Shown: one piece after another, positions 10,266 to 63,587 of the stretch
How the letters are laid out: every line of letters begins with the position of its first letter
Numbering within the stretch: the stretch's first letter is position 1
NCBI GenBank assembly: GCA_965112155.1
Contig: OZ218105.1
Strand: one strand, 5' to 3'
Length of the DNA: 64,000 bases
Origin: Podarcis liolepis
Taxonomy: Eukaryota
Translations under genes and position numbers: made by a program
Notes under the pieces: generated by a model
What the model saw: only the letters and a program-made list of their open reading frames with translations
Database searches by the model: none
What the model was told of the DNA's origin: nothing

Positions 10266-10824
10266 GTGAGTCTGAGTTGTTGCTGGACTGAAATTGTTGT
10301 GATTAGAAAAATGTAGGCTTTGCAACAGTGCCTCTGGGTCTTTCAGATTGTCTGCGCCTTTAAAAAACCCCTGCAGTAATCAAACAGCACCACCTGCTGT
10401 TCTAATCCATAGGATCAACATTTTGAAATAGATGTAGCATCTCCTGAAACCATGATATTGCACTGCTTAGGAAGTCTAAGTCACTGTCGATTTAAAATAT
10501 GTACTTCTTGCTGAGAATTTTTTTACTTTATTTCTATCATTAATGCATGAATTGCCACACATTATTGACATGAAATATTACACCATGTAAAGGAGTTGAT
10601 GTTTTACAGTAAAATAGACATACTTCACAAAACCATGAGGTCACTAGGGAAGTGCATTCCTGTGATCATGGTTTTCACAGAGAGCACTTGATCGTGGAAC
10701 GTAAAAGCTTTTCAGAGTCCTTCCTATAAGCAAAGTATGATGGGATACGTATAGGAGATACTCCCCACCCCCAGACTTGAAATGAAGCCTCTCAAAATCT
10801 GTATGACTTATCACTTAAGTCACA

Positions 10825-10945
10825 TGTGGGGAACCACTGGTCCTCCAGATGTTGCTGAACTACAGCTCCCATCAGCCCTACATGCATGACCTATGGGCAG
10901 GGGTAATGGGAGCTGTAGTTCAGCAAGAACTAGAAGTCCAAAGGT
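10825..10945. mobile_element. Short hairpin MITE (hAT-like family with several copies in the window)
   Basis: Arms ttgctgaactacagctcccat / atgggagctgtagttcagcaa; diverged copies near 16022-16160, 41930-42030 and 62895-63030. Confidence 0.65.
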
Positions 10946-11912
10946 CTCCCAAACTGACTTAAATGAATGAAGAAGTCAGCACCAAACAGTTTGGGCTTCT
11001 TCTTGCTTCACTTAACAGGCAAGTGTTGCTGTGAGAACCTTTTCTCAGAAGTTTTTCATAATCTGAGCTATTAGGACTTTTAACTGCCCACCCAGCTTTC
11101 CAAATCACTGACAGTTCTCATGTTTCAACATAATGTGTGTGCGTTTTTCTGTTTCTGAACCACACAACCCCATCTGCATCTCCAGGTTTACTCACGGAGG
11201 ATTCCCCCCCCATACACCTGCTACAACAGATCTGTGCATAGAAACCTACATCTGCCTGTAAATCACTGTTCCTAGTTGAATCCAAGCAAGTGAATGTGCT
11301 TTCAGCTCTAGAAAATAGGGAATAGGAGGACATGTGCTTTAAATGAATTTAATTGAATTACTTTTTTTTTTTAAAGAAAGCATTAGTTTTAAATGAAGTG
11401 AGTAAATTACAAGGTTAATATCCTGTTAGGCAAAGTTTTGTGCGTGAAAACCAATTTCTAAAAATAAGCAGGTCCCAAAAAGTTGCAGGGAAATCTTTCT
11501 TAAAATACTTTGTTTAAATATTTACCTTTCAGCTAGCCACAGATGCTTCCAATATATAGGTGTTGATCTATTTCAGTAAAATAGTGTGTTGAGCGGAAGT
11601 ATTCTTCATTTATTTTTTAAATTGAATATTGCCCTGTGTAAATATCCACATATGCAAAAAGAGTAATATATTTTTTGAAAGTGTGTGTGGGGGGGGTGGA
11701 ATATATATTTCTAACCATGACATTCTTGTGTTAGTCTCTCAGAAATAAGACAAAATATTATGAGCCATTCATAAGCCATTCACTCTTCTACATTGGTGTG
11801 TGTTTCTGCAAGTTGCTTTTTGAAATATTGTATATACTGTTTCGAAACATCTCAATTTAAAAATAAATAAATAAAATAAATTACAACTCTCAACTATTTT
11901 TCATCTATTTAG

Positions 11913-16942: not shown

Positions 16943-17320
16943 GGGGTGTGTTGCAGTATAATACTGTTCCCAGGATCCCAAGTGACATTGGTAAAAGATG
17001 GCCCAGGAGTTCTTACCTTGAAATATAACCTGAGGTGTGTCAGCAGTGGTACAAGGTATTCCAGATCGTATTACTTTTGGAAGTCTCTTGTAAAGCAGCT
17101 GGTAAGCTGCCTGTTTGCCAAGCTGAAGCCTTGTCCATTCATGGGAGCAGCCTCTAATCTACCACCCTCTTCAGTGTCATTCCAATGACAGAAACATCAT
17201 ATATTAGAGTATGGATGAGGAGGTAAGGACTCCTGGGCCATCTTTTACCAAGGTTACTTGGGATCCTGGGAGCAATATTATACTGCACCACACCCCAGGA
17301 TGCCTCAGGTTATATTTCAA
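16943..17320. repeat. Imperfect inverted repeat, ~76-bp arms plus a permuted ~18-bp block
   Basis: 16943-17018 is the reverse complement of 17221-17296 with several mismatches; 17018-17035 is the reverse complement of 17303-17320. Confidence 0.85.
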
Positions 17321-28386: not shown

Positions 28387-28619
28387 NNNNNNNNNNNNNN
28401 NNNNNNNNNNNNNNNNNNNNNNNNNNNNNNNNNNNNNNNNNNNNNNNNNNNNNNNNNNNNNNNNNNNNNNNNNNNNNNNNNNNNNNNNNNNNNNNNNNNN
28501 NNNNNNNNNNNNNNNNNNNNNNNNNNNNNNNNNNNNNNNNNNNNNNNNNNNNNNNNNNNNNNNNNNNNNNNNNNNNNNNNNNNNNNNNNNNNNNNNNNNN
28601 NNNNNNNNNNNNNNNNNNN
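28387..28619. other. Assembly gap
   Basis: Run of N. Confidence 1.
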
Positions 28620-29594
28620 TACATGGCTTTAGACATAGCAACATTTCTTCTGTTGTGCCATTTGTGCGTGCAAAAAGTTGTGCCAGGAGAGTCACAGCAT
28701 CCCAGTTGGTAGATGGCGCTGAGTTGAATTAAGACAGCAGGCTTCTTCATTGGTCCTCTCGATGTACTGTCTCTAGAGCTGGCATGCTTAAGTCATTCCA
28801 GTAATGGACTCTTTAATGCCTAGGTCCAAGTGCAATTAGCACAGCCAGCCATACTAAATGTGTATACCTTGGAAACCTGTGGGCAAAATCTGACCGTTTG
28901 CTTGATAAATGATCCTACTAACCAGTGTTCCCTCTCACCTGTGGCCTCATGCAGTACAGGATGAGCAGCAAAAACTGAGGGGAATGTGTATGTGTGAACT
29001 TGCCTATTACTTCTGGGCTATTAAAAAGCAGTGAGGGGGTGAGCCCACGCATTCCCCCCACTATTCCTTTGAGGACAACTACAGCTAAGAGGATTGCACT
29101 GGCTTTGAGTGCTGCATTGGAGTAGGGTGGGTGGGTGGGTGGTGGAAGAGAGACACAACTTTCAAGAAATGCAGGGCTTAAAAAAAAGAGGCTATAGAAG
29201 AACTTGACCCACTATGCAAGCCCTTTTTCTATTACTATTTTAACATTAGTTTCTCAGTTGCTACCTGAGCCATCTTAAAGAGCCTGTATAATGTAAACTG
29301 GTTGCAAGAAACACTTGGAAAACCCCAACAACTTCTATGGATTATAGCATAGCATTATAGCGCCGTAAGAACCACTCCTACACACAAGCCCAGCATATCA
29401 GGGCCCCCAATGGTACTATATCTTTTGCTGAGGAAAACTATGACACAGAAAGGATTGTTAAGTGGTGGGAAATAACCCTTCTGTGTGGCATACAAACACA
29501 AATACACATTTCTGGGGAGGTATTGCAGCCAAAGAGCGCTGCTTAAACTTTGTTGCAGAATAGACTCTATTCTCATTTGCTTTTTCTTTGAGAC

Positions 29595-36675: not shown

Positions 36676-36766
36676 CATAGCTGTCAACGCCCCCCCCCCT
36701 TTTAAGGGAAATTCCCTTATTCCGAATAGGATTCCTCGCAAGAAAAGGGGAAAGTTGACAGCTATG
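36676..36766. mobile_element. 91-bp hAT MITE
   Basis: TIR CATAGCTGTCAAC/GTTGACAGCTATG; perfect 8-bp TSD CCAAACAC. Confidence 0.9.
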
Positions 36767-37635
36767 CCAAACACCTTCTAGCGTAGATGCCTGCCAAAGA
36801 AAATCGGAGTGACTCCATTTCTAGAGCGAGCGCCAGATCACTTTTGCCAGCAGAATTACTAGGAGAGAAGGGATGCTGCTTTCTGTAGGTGTTTGGGAAG
36901 AGTATTGCGACTTTAGCTGCGGGGCGAGGACCGACCGCTCCTTAGTCCAAGGCGTCTCGCTTGCCTCCCACTCGAGCCTGCCGGCCAGCCGGGGCAGATC
37001 TGCCCTGCGAGGGCCCGCTTCTGCCCTTGGGAGGTGCTCGTTGCTTAAGCGGAGTAGGAAGCGCTCGGCCCCCTCTGTCCCTTGCCAGCGATGGAGAGCC
37101 AGATCTGACGGGAAGGACTGGTGCTGGTGTCCTCGCTCCGGAAGAGGAGGTGGCTGGGCTGGCGACACTGGTCCTGGGTCTCTAGGGCAAGAAAGCAGGG
37201 AGGTTCTGGGACGACAGCAAGCCCTGCTACTGCAGTGGGCCAGATCCCAGACGTGGACCACAAGTCCCTTTAAAGATCTCACTGATGGTTAAGTAGGGAG
37301 CATCAAGGAGTCTTTAACCCACCGCTGGTCCCTGGAGTCATTTTTATTTCATAGGCAGAGTAAATTTCCCCGCATGGATTCTGAATAGCATCCCTCGCTT
37401 TTTAGTGTCTCTGTTTAGCTTAGGGCGCCTCTGCCGTGGAGCTCAATGGGACTTATCTCCCAAATAAGAAAAGGGTGGTCAGGATCGCAGCGCAGGAGGG
37501 CCTCCTCTGTGCGCAATCCGACGTCTTTCAGGAGGTTGGGCGGCTGCATCTCTTTTGGGTCCGCTGCAGAAGGGGGCATTTCAGCTGGTCCTGGCCAGCC
37601 ATGGAAGGTGCAGGAGGAGCCCCCCGAATGGGGAG

Positions 37636-37685
37636 CATAGCTGTCAACTTTCCCCTTTTCTTGCGAGGAATCCTTGACAGCTATG
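37636..37685. mobile_element. 50-bp hAT MITE, same family, opposite orientation
   Basis: TIR CATAGCTGTCAA/TTGACAGCTATG; TSD ATGGGGAG/GTGGGGAG. Confidence 0.85.
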
Positions 37686-55795: not shown

Positions 55796-56631
55796 GAGCC
55801 TATTAGAAAAGAAAAGGCTTCTATTGATGCCTGGTGAGCCCAAGGCTTTCACATTAGGAGCACTATGCTCCAAGCATAACACTGAGCTGCGAGGTAGCAA
55901 TGGAGAAGTTGGGAGGTGAGTTTTATTTTTTAGAATAAATGACTGATAAGTGACTGATGGTCACTGTATCTACAACGTATACTGATGGTAGCTTTTTGTT
56001 ACTGTTGATATTAGTATTCTTTGTGTCTCATTTTTTTCTCTTTCTTTTTTCCTTTCCTTTAATCCCCCCATGTTTTTTCCTTTCTCTCCTTTTCCTTGTT
56101 AAATTTGCTAAAAAATAAATAAATTAAATCAACTACTACTAATGCAAATAGTACAATGCCAAATACAAATTCCACTTACTAAGCACAGCTATTTCCCCTT
56201 AGTATGGACCCTTCTCACAGTCCATTATTCTGAAAAGTGATTCCTTGGTGGTTGTTTTTAAGTTGCAAGTCCCTGTTCTGCTGGCATAAAGTTGAAAGCC
56301 AGGTTCTTAGCAGTCTTCTTGCCAGAAAGCCAATATAGTACAATGGTTAGAGTTTTACTTCGGAGTAGGTGGCTCCATTTCTATTGCCTGTTTAGCTATG
56401 GAGCTCTCCTTGTGCAGGGATGGAGTTTGGTCTTTCAGCAGCACCCTGTGTGAGGCAAAAATCTGGTGCCTCTCCGCTTCTTGCCTTTTGTTCTGCTCAA
56501 TTCACTATGTCATAGTTGCAATGCCCTGTGGCGCCCCCTAGGCTCAGCGACGAGTGCAGGGGAACTGGTTGCACTGCCCTAAATCTGCCTCTGCCTTGTG
56601 CAAGTCATTCTTTGTGTCTCTTATTAACTTA

Positions 56632-56959
56632 CCGTATTTTTCGCCCTATAGGGCGCACCGGCCCATAGGGCACACCTAGTTTTTTGGGGGGGAAATAAAG
56701 GGGAAAAAATTATTTCTCCCCCAGCCCCCAGAACAGGCTGCTATCCACAAGCCTTGGGAGCCCGGCGGGAACTCCTGCCGCACTCAGAAGGCTTGCGGAT
56801 AGTTGCCCGAAGCCTGGAGAGCAAGAGGGATCGGTGCGCACCGACCCCTCTCGCTCTCCAGGCTTCAGCGAAAGCCTGCATTCGCCCCATAGGACGCACA
56901 CACATTTCCCCTTCATTTTTGGAGGGGAAAAAGTGCGTCCTATAGGGCGAAAAATACGG
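56632..56959. mobile_element. Tc1/mariner (pogo/Tc2-like) MITE
   Basis: TA|CCGTATTTTTCGCCCTATAGG ... CCTATAGGGCGAAAAATACGG|TA. Confidence 0.9.
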
Positions 56960-58769
56960 TAAGTGGGGTTACGAGGACAAAATGCCACGAGCTGCTTGGA
57001 GGAAGAGCAGGATTTCATATGTAGCAGGCAAGCATCTCCCAGGTGCTATGCATATGTGTCACTAAGGCTGTGTTCCAGTCTCTTATTACACTTCAGCATT
57101 GAATATAAAAGCTCCCCAGCAGCACATGGAAGTGACTCCCACACACACTGTGTGTGTGAAGGGGGCTTTAGCTTGGATGCTGATGGAGCTGTTCAACTTG
57201 AATCTGGAAGATCTAAGACCTTAGCCATGGCTCCATCACTTTGCTAAGTCTCCTATCCCTGAATGTTAAGTGGGGATAATAAGTGGCCTACCCTGTGCAA
57301 AGCAGCTAATCAAAGGTGATAGCAAAGCGATAGCCAGAAGCAGCAACCTCAAAAGATCATGGGCTAAGATTAAAATTAAGCAACAAGACACAGGATAATT
57401 TCCCCAACTATTTCAGATTATGTCTCTTGAACTGGAATAGGCCCAGATGCATTCTAAAAGCCCTTCTAAAATCCATGTTACATGTCTTGAGTCCCCAGTA
57501 GCAACTTGGACTTAAGGCCATTCCCCTCCACTGCCCCCAGGGTTCAAGGGGAAAATGCAGTGGGGTTTTATAGGTGTCTGGCCTTTGTGCCATCTATCCA
57601 ATCCTGGGGCAGGCTGCTGCTGGCTCTCCCTGGAGGAGCTTCACTTTTCAACGTGTTTGACCCACAGACTCTCTCTAAGTGGCTACCTGTCAGTTTCCAT
57701 TTCAGCCTTACCTTACTGTTTACATGAGTGCTGACCACTGCCTGACATATTACCTGTATTGATTCTCTAATAGCTGTCAAGGTGGAGAGAGAGAGACTAT
57801 TCTAAGACAGGGCTTGGAGCTCTTAGCCGAGTAGGATCATAAACGCCTCCCATTAAAGGGTCCATTCAATAACAATCTTTACCAAAGTAAATGGACATCA
57901 GTGGGCTCCCCAGCAGGCTGCCTAATGCAAAGGCCATTATAAAGCACCGAGGCAGAGCTGGAGGAAGGTTATGGCTGTGGTATCAGTTTCAGCAATGTTT
58001 TTCAAGTGATTCCTTTAATGAAAAGCACGTTCTTTTTTATCTCAGGGCCGTAATAGAGTTGCTCAGAGTTGTCCTGTGTACCTAAGGCCATATCCGCTAA
58101 GAAAAAATAATCAAGTTGTTTTAGCCAGCGTTTACTTGCAGCTAACAGTAACAAGGCAGGTGCATATTTGTCTCCTGGAAACAACAACAACACACAACCA
58201 TAAAATAATCATTTTTCTGGTGGTCAGAAATGGTGCAATGCCCTGTACAAATATTAATAAAATGATCCCATTCTCATTGCAGTGTTGGGAAGCAATACTA
58301 AGTCATCTCATCTATCAGATTCTGGATTAGTAACACACCAATTTAACTTTTTATATTTTTTATTATCCAAGCCATACAGGCTAGACGTTATATCTCTATC
58401 TATATATGGCATCTTTTCTAAAAATTAAAATTGAGTTTTCAGGATGTCGGTGGGAACTACCAGATTTAATGTAAGACTATGGAGTTCAGCGTCACACACT
58501 ATGTTGAATGTTCCATCTGCCAAAGGTATCAGCTTGCCAGATGAAATGATCCACCTTTCCTCCCCCAGTTTTATGGGGGTTCTCTCAAGCTCCCAAGCCA
58601 ATTTTTGCGTGTGTGCAGAAGGAGGAAAGATCCTTTGCACAAGTGGAAGCCCTTGTACAGGGCTTCTGCTGATCATGTTTATTAGGCAATGCCCACCCAC
58701 CATGTTTAGAAATGTATTGCGCACAAACAGATTCCTGGACCTCCAGATTCCTGGACAACTGAAGGTGGC

Positions 58770-59561: not shown

Positions 59562-60088
59562 CAGTGTTTCCCAACCGGTGTGCCGCGGCACACTACTGTG
59601 CCGTGAGACACCGGCTGGTGTGCCGTGGGAGGGAGGCGGGCGAGTCGGGCGGCGAGAGGCGGCGGCGGCGGCGAGGATCCGCGTCGAGCCGGGGGCGGCT
59701 CCGCGGTGGTGGTGCCGAGCGGCGGGGCAGCTCGCGCAAAAGGGAGGAGCGCGAGACAGCGGAGGAGGAGGAGGCCGGCATGTCCGGGCAGCAGCAGCAA
59801 CAGCAGCAGCAGCAACTCCCGGCGACGGCTCCTCCTCCGCCCGCTATCGCCGCCACCACCACAACAGCCGCCGCCGCCTCAGCTGCCGCCGTCCCTCAGT
59901 CCCTCGCTCTGCTGCCTCCTCCCACCCCGGCAAGGGGAAGGGAAAAAACGTTCACTTTTGTGCGTCCCCCCCCCCCCGCGTGACGCTGCGCGCTGACGTC
60001 ACGGGGCGGGGCTTTAATGGTGGTGTGCCGCGAGATTTTTTTCTGGTAAGCAGGTGTGCCGTTGCCCAAAAACGTTTGGGAAACACTG
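59562..60088. mobile_element. 527-bp non-autonomous hAT element with GC-rich cargo
   Basis: TIR CAGTGTTTCCCAA/TTGGGAAACACTG; perfect TSD ACCTAAAC; subterminal GTGTGCCG repeats. Confidence 0.92.
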
Positions 60089-60688: not shown

Positions 60689-61759
60689 GTCTACCCTATC
60701 CAAGGCACAAGCGAGGGAAGAACTATGGAGTTATTAAAGGAAAGCGAAGTTTCTTGGAATCTGAATAGGCTAGTGCTTCAGTGGTCACAGCCAAAGTTTC
60801 TGATTGTGTCCTGGCCCAATAGCAAAAACAACAGCATTGGATGGAGCTGTGAATTAAAAAGTGAGTGCAGTCTTGTTGCCTTGACGTTTCACTTTTACTG
60901 TTTGCTGCAGAGTGGGAAACAGGTGCTTTAGTGCCTTTGCTTTATTTACATACCAGGCTTGAAAGGCTGCAGAGCAGATGACTTTACAACAATGGCAGAT
61001 GGTGAGCATCCTTCTTGGGGGGACTGCTGATTAAGGCAGTCTTCTTCTTGATCACCAAGGAGTTGTGGCTTAAAGTGAATCCCCCTTGAAAGCTGTTGCC
61101 TGACATGGACTAAGCTTCTATTGCTGTCTTTGTGAAATAATGTCCATGCTATAGCGAAATCTTGAATGGAAGGGTCTCCCTGAATTACTGCATTCCTGTC
61201 TTGTAGGGCTGATTGCAAGAACAGAGTAAAATAATTGGTGGTCTATAAGGAAGACTCATTAATGCATTAGTTTAACATATTAGTATTGATCACACAAAGA
61301 CTTTCAGCTGTAGTTTCGGAGATTTCTACAAGGAGACAAGACAAAGGTCAGTGGGTAAATAGCGCTAAACTTGAGGTCAAAGGTGAATGTGTACAGTCAT
61401 TAAAAACAAATCACAGTAGATTAAATGACGGATTAAATCGGTGGGATATGACAATTCTCCTGAAATAGTTTCAAGTCAACATGGCCAATAACAAAGTGAG
61501 TCCTGCATTCCACACTGTTCTTTCAAACTGATTTTAATTGCTGGTGGAATAAATTTATTATTATTCTCAAATTCAAACTTGGCAGCTTTCTTCTTTAAGA
61601 AGTAGCGCAGGAAAGGATCTGGCCTGTTTTTGAATTGTACAGTAAAACAACTCAGATGCTTGTGGTGATGGGATTTCTTTCTTCTCTGCCAATCTTTTAT
61701 GTGACTTATAAGGATAATTGAATGCATACTAACAATGTGATAAGTAGGTAAGAGGAAAT

Positions 61760-62003
61760 AAAAAAATTCCTTCCAGTAGCACCTTAAAGACCAACTAAGT
61801 TAGTTCTTGGTATGAGCTTTCGTGTGCATGCACACTTCTTCAGATACACTGAAACAGAAGTTGCCAGACTGTTTCAGTGTATCTGAAGAAGTGTGCATGC
61901 ACACGAAAGCTCATACCAAGAACTAACTTAGTTGGTCTTTAAGGTGCTACTGGAAGGAATTTTTTTTATTTTGACTATGGCAGACCAACACGGCTACCTA
62001 TCT
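61760..62003. mobile_element. Penelope-like element remnant: inverted pseudo-LTR, 98-bp perfect arms, 11-nt loop
   Basis: 61760-61857 is the reverse complement of 61869-61966; 16-bp TSD GTAGGTAAGAGGAAAT at 61744 and 62004; hammerhead core in each arm. Confidence 0.85.
61879..61916 (+). ncRNA. Minimal type I hammerhead ribozyme motif (mirror copy at 61810-61847 on the minus strand)
   Basis: GUAU-CUGAAGA-A-[GUGUG CAUG CACAC]-GAAA-GC-UC-AUAC. Confidence 0.7.
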
Positions 62004-63587
62004 GTAGGTAAGAGGAAATGAGAGAGAATATATCTCCAGGAATTTCACATTATAAACCCAAACAAAAAACTTCAACAAATCTTATTTTTGTCCTGTGTAT
62101 GTAGATTTTAAAAATGCAAATACTTCATCTAGCTCAAGGCAATCTTCATGGGATTAAACTAGGGTTGCCACTGCATTATTTTCCTGAATGAGGCTCTATG
62201 CATTTCACAGCTGCATGGCAGACAGGGAGCCTCTTTTCCTATTGCTAAATGTCAATGCTAGAAATGCTGCTCTTGTTGAACTTTGTCATGCAGATGTTAA
62301 TGCATAGGGCTTTTACTGGAGGGTGGTGGGGGTGGGGGTGTCGAGGTTGTAACCTTAGATTAAGCAAATGATTTAAGAAAAATTATCTTAAAGTCAACAT
62401 TTTCCAGAATCCTTTGAAATGTATTTGGACCCTTCTGATTTCCTGAATCTAGGAGAAGATCCTGCCAAAGTAGATACTGTTAGTTTCAATATAGAAGAGC
62501 AAACTTGCTTATTTTCTTCTCAGAGCAGTTTTCCTTCTGTGAAATGGGTTTTTTGTTGCTGCTGCTCTTTGTGAGGTTTGGTATTTGGGGCTCAGCCTCA
62601 ATCTTTGTCTTGAACTCAGTTTCTTCAGAAGTTATTTGACTTTTGTGACAAGGAGGGTCCCCTTGGCAGCCATTATTAAACATGGCTGCCCATTTTATGG
62701 TGTTCACAGCACTTACATTTCCAGATGTGGCCCAGGGCTCTAAAAGGCTGATGACCCCTGAATTAGTTTGTGGCTAATAAAGGAAGCCATGAAGGTCACT
62801 GGCTGACTTTGAGCCAGTGATGACTTTCTCTGTTCCTCCTACCTGTCTCGATTGGCTACAACTTCTATCCTCAAAATCTTGTCAAGTCTTTAAGGAAGGG
62901 ATGGAAAACTTGTGGCCTTCCAGATGTTGCTGGATTCCAGTTCCCACCCTCCCTGAACATTGCTCATGCTGTCTGGGGGGGGGGTGAGTTGGAGTCTAAC
63001 AGTGTTTGGATGACCACATGTTTCCCCACCCCTGTTTTGTTTTGTTTTTAAATCCCAATCTAGAATATTTATGGAACAGATCATTTTAGTTTTAGAACTT
63101 TTGTTTCCTGTTGTTTTGCAATATGATTCACACAGTTAAGGAAATTGTTATTTCTTTTCTTAACATCTTGGCCACAAGTGAGGATACTTCTGTCGTGCTT
63201 CAATCTCATTGATTTCAGTGTAATTTAAATGTGTGGAATTTAAGTGTTCGAATATGTACATTTTTAAAAGAGAATGTTTATTTCCTTTCCTTTAGATGCA
63301 TTTTACCTGAGGCCATTGCACTACTTTTTTGACCAGTTATCTTGGATTGATGCATTCCTGTGAAATTCCTATTGTAAGGGAATCTGGGGTCACAACAATA
63401 TAAGTTCTCATCAAATGCCAACAAAATGTCATAAAACTGAAGAACCATGTTGGTTTTTGATGGTGTTTGAGTTTCTGAAACAGCAGGACAGAACTAGGCT
63501 AACCCTCAAACTCCCATGGGCATGGGAGGTGATAGGGGCTTGAGCATATAGCCCAGCCTTTGCTAACCTGGTGTCCTCTAGATGTTT

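Follow-up and report, generated by a model that had tools for sequence, protein, structure and literature searches.

Does a short insertion that folds back on itself, with a hammerhead ribozyme motif on each strand, represent an evolved device of a mobile element, or a by-product of the way in which the element is copied? The question is raised by an insert of 244 bases in a stretch of 64,000 nt from the lizard Podarcis liolepis (assembly GCA_965112155.1, contig OZ218105.1), the whole of which is called the window here. The insert is young and consists of two truncated ends, joined head to head and without coding capacity, of a very abundant repeat that is most likely Penelope-like; the hairpin is likely to have arisen as a side effect of copying and not as an evolved switch.

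The insert is flanked by an exact 16-bp direct repeat (61744–61759 and 62004–62019, plus strand), a match that at these given places has a chance probability of about 3e-10. Between the two repeat copies lie two arms of 98 nt each (61760–61857 and 61869–61966) that are 100% complementary and separated by 11 nt, and a tail of 37 nt (61967–62003, plus strand) follows the right arm only. The first-pass annotation had given these lengths for arms, tail, and duplication, and all are exact by sequence comparison. The predicted fold of the palindrome region has an energy of −188.8 kcal/mol (z −25), which was equaled by none of 200 shuffles. The 11 nt at 61858–61868 had been described as a loop; their length and position stand, but the reading as a spacer does not. 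The unpaired centre is element sequence, antisense on the plus strand, because family copies match the window through 61868 before they diverge from it and continue into common family sequence. The loose ends behind 61868 share this further sequence with an agreement of 0.82–1.0 in four sequencing runs. Arm and centre together form an inverted, tail-less, 5′-truncated element end of 109 nt on the minus strand (61760–61868), which is joined with 0–1 nt of microhomology to the sense, 5′-truncated element end of 98 nt on the plus strand (61869–61966) that the inverted-repeat comparison delimits. At the right end, family sequence matches on to 62006 and then scatters; tail and right duplication therefore share 3 nt as microhomology, and each of the four runs shows loose ends behind 62006. 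At the left end, the last four bases of the duplication resemble the element sequence just beyond the start of the left arm, which is possibly a priming microhomology, and an A/T tract differs by one base (A7 on the left, T8 on the right). The stump contains no ORF, as each of the three frames between 61869 and 62003 is interrupted by stops.

Of 24 listed sequencing runs, four (three of DNA and one of RNA) were compared with positions 61450–62349; no RNA run is among the listed holders of the 1.2-kb stretch. In DNA run X1, which may come from the source itself, contigs from each flank enter the element, and the site is filled. In DNA run X2, which comes from a relative, contig 16 joins 61743 directly to 62004. 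This precise empty site carries a single copy of the repeat, which identifies the 16-bp repeat as a target-site duplication. DNA run X14 from another relative is likewise empty, and 61759 and 62021 are separated there by nine other letters. The insertion is therefore younger than the divergence from these two close relatives, and the earlier proposal of a young, target-primed insertion is borne out by both empty sites. The protein domains found by Pfam in the window, NCOA and PRDM, lie upstream of the insertion; the window is vertebrate, and SINE-like sequence of a squamate-specific kind points to a lizard. A GC-rich, CpG-island-like segment at 59600–60050 holds a donor-like GTAAG at 60046. 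If the mammalian synteny of NCOA2, PRDM14, and SLCO5A1 applies, the insertion may lie in a first intron. Taken singly, the event is of little consequence; it marks a lineage and gives a clean, textbook-like example.

When the 64-kb window is scanned throughout on both strands, a minimal hammerhead motif turns up only at 61879–61916 on the plus strand and at its mirror on the minus strand (61810–61847). The motif is made up of a 4-bp stem I, the CUGAAGA core, one extra A, a 5-bp stem II closed by G10.1–C11.1, GAAA, and a palindromic AGCU. Judged from sequence by its core, stems, extra base, G10.1–C11.1 pair, and palindromic 15–16 region, 61879–61916 is a minimal type I hammerhead motif; C17 lies at 61912, and the cut in the mirror motif is predicted after 61814. 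The scan confirms the earlier claim of one such motif per strand with C17 at 61912, and the assignment to the Penelope type agrees with the published descriptor and with a painted-turtle motif that has the same AGCU palindrome. The motifs described in the available parts of Cervera and De la Pena 2014 (PMC4209133) share the core, the extra base before stem II, G10.1–C11.1, the short stem I, and AGCU in place of stem III; the supplement includes a motif of the same build from Chrysemys picta (painted turtle), not marked there as linked to an ORF. Unlike the motifs given there, the one described here has a self-complementary 4-mer as stem II loop, and its two copies lie ~30 nt apart, compared with 100 to 700 bp for the opposite-strand pairs of that study (PMC4209133). 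A search of Rfam returned 22 matches, none of them a hammerhead and none at the gathering score; hairpin families appeared only below threshold. A microRNA precursor was rejected on this count, with 0 of 22 matches at the gathering score.

Among the 17 of 20 variable places listed for X1, the only ones that fall in the motif are the CpG C11.1/G12 (14–16%) and C17, which changes to U in 23% and is still allowed as such in the hammerhead descriptor. The core, whose loss among copies had been named as grounds for giving up the ribozyme, is kept at the places listed. Shared descent within a young family explains this conservation as well as selection does. Stem-loop II (61891–61904) is a perfect 14-nt palindrome, and the corresponding loop of the turtle motif is non-palindromic. 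Dimerization is therefore predicted to use stem II in preference to the stem III palindrome of 4 nt; the double-hammerhead dimer reaches −11.1 kcal/mol versus −30.6 kcal/mol for the dimer through stem II, in secondary-structure energies that leave out protein help and tertiary contacts. When the sense arm is folded alone, stem II has a pairing probability of 0.9 and stem I one of 0.02. Minimal hammerheads of metazoan Penelope-like elements are reported to have low activity even as dimers (PMC4209133), and dimer cleavage is restated in a review (PMC6765202), as far as the accessible text of both sources goes. No pile-up of RNA ends occurs at the cut site or elsewhere in the one fragmented RNA library, which is a weak test of cleavage. 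The template was uncleaved, because both arms run through the cut site. Directly before stem I stands a pyrimidine-rich run (61869–61877, plus strand) that ends in an acceptor-like CAG (61875–61877). It may mark the 3′ splice site of an intron retained in the element, by analogy with the Penelope of D. virilis, whose intron is described as ending at hammerhead stem I (PMC4209133). No donor or spliced read is seen among the 15 of 515 joints listed.

Elsewhere in the 64-kb window there are no further copies of the element; in the sequencing runs it is extremely abundant. Summed contig depth is 0.46 to 2.9 million on the element versus 15 to 73 on the flanks, a rough ratio that corresponds to 90,000–150,000 arm-equivalents and is taken as ~10^4–10^5, since summed depth measures copies poorly. 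The reads contain 515 joints, and all 15 of those listed connect the left arm with the right arm at turn points that differ. Other copies are therefore head to head as well, with other centres. Some centre junctions are deep (up to 3600 in X2), so that some palindromes must themselves be multicopy or recurrent. The ratio of tail depth to summed arm depth is 0.39–0.47 in all three DNA runs, equivalent to about one tail per two arms. In 11 of the 15 joints listed (of 515), the antisense arm is left at the start of hammerhead stem I (61846–61849/61877–61880), by the acceptor-like CAG, and in X1 a depth of 1.5 million at 61905 has dropped to 0.26 million by 61880; the start of stem I is possibly a preferred stop of reverse transcription. 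At 61968, G makes up 83% of the depth in X14 and 4–8% in X1 and X2, which suggests different dominant subfamilies in closely related species.

By its sequence marks, the family is most likely a Penelope-like retroelement: it combines an inverted, 5′-truncated head-to-head copy with a one-sided tail in the range of 30–40 bp (37 nt), a target-site duplication, and a hammerhead upstream of the tail. An inverted, 5′-truncated copy, a 30–40 bp tail on one end, and target duplications are standard for Penelope-like elements (PMC8557442; PMC3846280). The elements in the available portions of Arkhipova et al. 2013 and Craig et al. 2021 also show head-to-head inversion, tail, target-site duplication, strong 5′ truncation, and a hammerhead near the 3′ end. 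In contrast to these elements, both copies here are only ~100 nt long, and the whole insert is a hairpin without an ORF (PMC3846280; PMC8557442). The duplication is also longer, with 16 bp versus 8–10 bp in the rotifer examples (PMC3846280; PMC8557442). Hairpin shape and hammerhead have thus been described before for such elements, and as a single case the insertion is ordinary. What is added here, namely strand-specific A-to-G changes in the family and one tail per two arms, is modest. No family copy linked to an RT/GIY-YIG ORF was found in viral contigs, metagenome contigs, prokaryote genomes, or plasmids, where such copies were sought as contaminants. Two candidate family copies, L001 and L002, were rejected as chance matches, as they have only an 18–22-base pattern in common with the element, in context that looks unrelated.

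Another close known system is the Poseidon element PAc of the green anole, whose protein nicks and extends both strands on an uncleaved template RNA, with two start sites that bracket the tail (Frangieh et al. 2024, PMC11167929). Its hammerhead is protein-assisted and dispensable for insertion, mutants being unimpaired in vitro, and RNA ends at the cut site were absent in the reported experiments (PMC11167929). PAc likewise comes from a lizard, and the distance from cut site to outer start is 85–92 nt there versus 91–94 nt here; by eye, the present element differs in sequence from the RNA printed in the supplement (PMC11167929). The ORF of PAc begins within stem II, but here none of the three frames is open; an ORF start at that place was rejected for the present element on account of the stops, and the clade of the present element may be Poseidon or Neptune.

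The first-pass annotation also expected the hairpin to mask the ribozyme and to be a Dicer or ADAR substrate. Masking agrees with the folding model, in which stems I and II have a pairing probability of 0 inside the hairpin on either strand. Editing was addressed with RNA run X23, which comes from a relative and from a study separate from the DNA. In it 1,457 reads matched among the 12.8 million read (~12% of the run), at an 85% likeness cut-off that loses heavily edited reads. Changes of A>G or T>C account for 42 of 60 changed places in this RNA and for 7 of 20, 6 of 20, and 11 of 32 in the three DNA runs (p 0.002 for X23 versus X14, the run with 11 of 32). The change table of X23 lists 40 of its 74 rows, of which 27 lie in the element and 16 are A>G or T>C; these 16 and two core rows were tested. 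Six of the 16 are DNA variants, and the other 10 reach at most 1.6% in DNA. In nine of these 10, reads of one mate direction carry A>G and reads of the other T>C, at 21–54% versus 0–3% in the opposite direction, where the strandedness of the library is taken from the change pattern itself. The nine rows reduce to seven family positions on both arms. On the sense arm these are 61908 (A15.1; 45 of 204 reads changed), 61915 in stem I (54 of 227), 61930, 61941, and 61942; on the antisense arm they lie opposite 61880 and 61924. ADAR prefers U or A as the 5′ neighbor, and all seven positions have U or A on their 5′ side. Position 61797 falls outside the editing pattern, and the DNA-variant places 61939 and 61968 are mate-asymmetric too.

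Family transcripts show the signature of A-to-I editing of double-stranded RNA. The pattern shows that the RNA was double-stranded; an intramolecular duplex does not follow from it. X23 has no depth on the flanks of the locus, and a DNA run of the same species lacks the insertion, so the evidence concerns the family and not the present copy. The expected ADAR substrate is accordingly upheld at the level of the family, by the strand-specific changes, and not for this copy itself, whose flanks carry no RNA depth. Massive editing of Penelope in lizard has been reported (Porath et al. 2017, PMC5625713), and in a Xenopus study Penelope is among the most edited repeats (PMC10636886). Porath et al. 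2017 resembles the present case in that lizard Penelope is edited and self-folding palindromic repeats are strong ADAR substrates (PMC5625713). The accessible text of that paper gives the palindrome explanation for frog Harbinger only and mentions no hammerhead, and the likeness is to Penelope by name.

Whether the palindrome was shaped by selection can be weighed against what it consists of. A very improbable reading is that of a non-autonomous palindromic element, that is, a MITE, a fold-back element, or a retrozyme, that moves as a hairpin unit. Such a unit would be short, non-coding, near-symmetric, and of high copy number, as is the present insert, and the few centre junctions of high depth (up to 3600 in X2) would suit it. 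The asymmetric tail, the 16-bp duplication, the hundreds of different centres, and the longer one-sided family sequence in both DNA and RNA are at odds with it. A MITE or DNA transposon has symmetric terminal inverted repeats that abut a short fixed duplication, and a constant interior; this class was rejected because of the 37-nt one-sided tail, the 16-bp duplication, and the variable centres. A non-LTR retrozyme was rejected as well, since the two copies here are inverted only, whereas retrozymes are defined in the available text by direct tandem units, each with a type I hammerhead (10.64898/2026.07.22.740005). It is also improbable, if less so, that the hairpin is a selected self-silencing device in which read-through transcripts of the many palindromic copies become substrates of Dicer or ADAR and keep the autonomous element, or its ribozyme, in check. 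The edited sites on both arms, A15.1 and the stem I base included, fit this device, as do the modeled absence of the ribozyme fold inside the hairpin and siRNAs that map to inverted Penelope regions in Drosophila (PMC3681739). The same siRNAs silence inefficiently (Evgen'ev 2013, PMC3681739; Rozhkov et al. 2011, PMC3136932), and hammerhead mutants leave insertion unimpaired in vitro (PMC11167929). Moreover, the stump is non-coding and is missing the upstream portion of the repeat, the turn points differ from copy to copy, and the family has reached very high copy number regardless. The notion of a special layout with a built-in switch is not supported by these comparisons: the layout is routine in the family, where all 15 of the 515 joints listed lead from left to right arm at differing turn points, the published Drosophila siRNAs silence poorly (PMC3681739), and there is nothing to switch, because the stump is without an ORF. 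Selection for self-silencing is conceivable, but the preferred reading is that the hairpin arises as a by-product when both target nicks prime synthesis.

For this by-product, the following origin is proposed. An RT/GIY-YIG protein supplied by a full-length copy elsewhere would nick the two target strands 16 bp apart, and from each target 3′ end a cDNA would be started on uncleaved RNA of the element. For the top strand, synthesis would begin at the inner start site, which leaves no tail, and for the bottom strand at the outer site, which yields the tail. Both cDNAs would stop early, just past the hammerhead, and their ends would be joined and the gaps filled; joining of two such cDNAs, blunt at their stopping points, would yield the structure seen here without further assumptions, and with it one tail per pair. 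In a copy of this kind, host read-through in either direction would produce the antisense arm first; the ribozyme would be locked into a 98-bp duplex, which ADAR would then edit. In the window, the top-strand end of the duplication is followed by antisense element from 54 nt past the cut site, and the bottom-strand end by antisense element from 91–94 nt past the cut site, with the 3 nt of microhomology noted above. An antisense centre on the top strand and a tail on the other arm only are the pattern expected of two separately primed cDNAs. By the rival route of fold-back or self-priming, on an antisense template for instance, one strand would be made and then copied back on itself, as has been proposed for the head-to-head inverted ends of rotifer elements (Arkhipova et al. 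2013, PMC3846280). This is a minority reading to which we give some weight, as the arms are 100% identical in a polymorphic family. They agree at seven family-variable positions, for which the chance is ~0.05–0.09 if templates are drawn freely; copying of one arm from the other and a single active source locus account equally well for this identity. Self-priming would have had only 0–1 nt of homology at the centre from which to start, the right-arm tail could not have been copied from the left arm, and the tract of A7 faces one of T8. The PAc start site did not differ between strands in the reported data (PMC11167929), and equal start sites do not by themselves predict one tail per pair, which counts against the proposed origin. 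On balance, two-ended priming is held to be about twice as probable as fold-back.

A wider proposal is advanced tentatively, as one that is somewhat more apt to fail than to hold. Tens of thousands of self-contained hammerhead palindromes may be what makes Penelope repeats dominant in the A-to-I editing of lizards, with ADAR rewriting the ribozyme core, and the fixed asymmetry of the copies, with one tailed and one tail-less arm that both stop near stem I, may record two-ended priming with a start site for each strand. Among open-licence papers, neither two-ended priming of Penelope nor editing of a Penelope hammerhead was found, and the links of palindromes to editing and of asymmetry to priming were not found stated. 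The family may explain in structural terms the published A-to-I excess in lizard Penelope repeats, and its hairpins may play in reptiles the part of inverted Alu pairs, supplying endogenous double-stranded RNA. It is also a large natural data set on the open question of how Penelope-like elements form their inverted ends and tails.

Several other repeats occur in the window. At 56627–56964 lies a MITE-like element, unrelated to the insertion, whose terminal inverted repeats measure 32 bp (97%) and which has an inner palindrome at 56809–56866. An inverted pair of 76 bp (92%) at 16943–17296 and an old, degenerate palindrome (73%) at 10811–10966 are both without a hammerhead motif. An assembly gap is located at ~28390–28630, and N totals 381 in the window. 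A perfect 40-bp inverted pair (36728–36767 and 37635–37674), its members ~870 bp apart, lies in a GC-rich region before the PRDM-domain gene.
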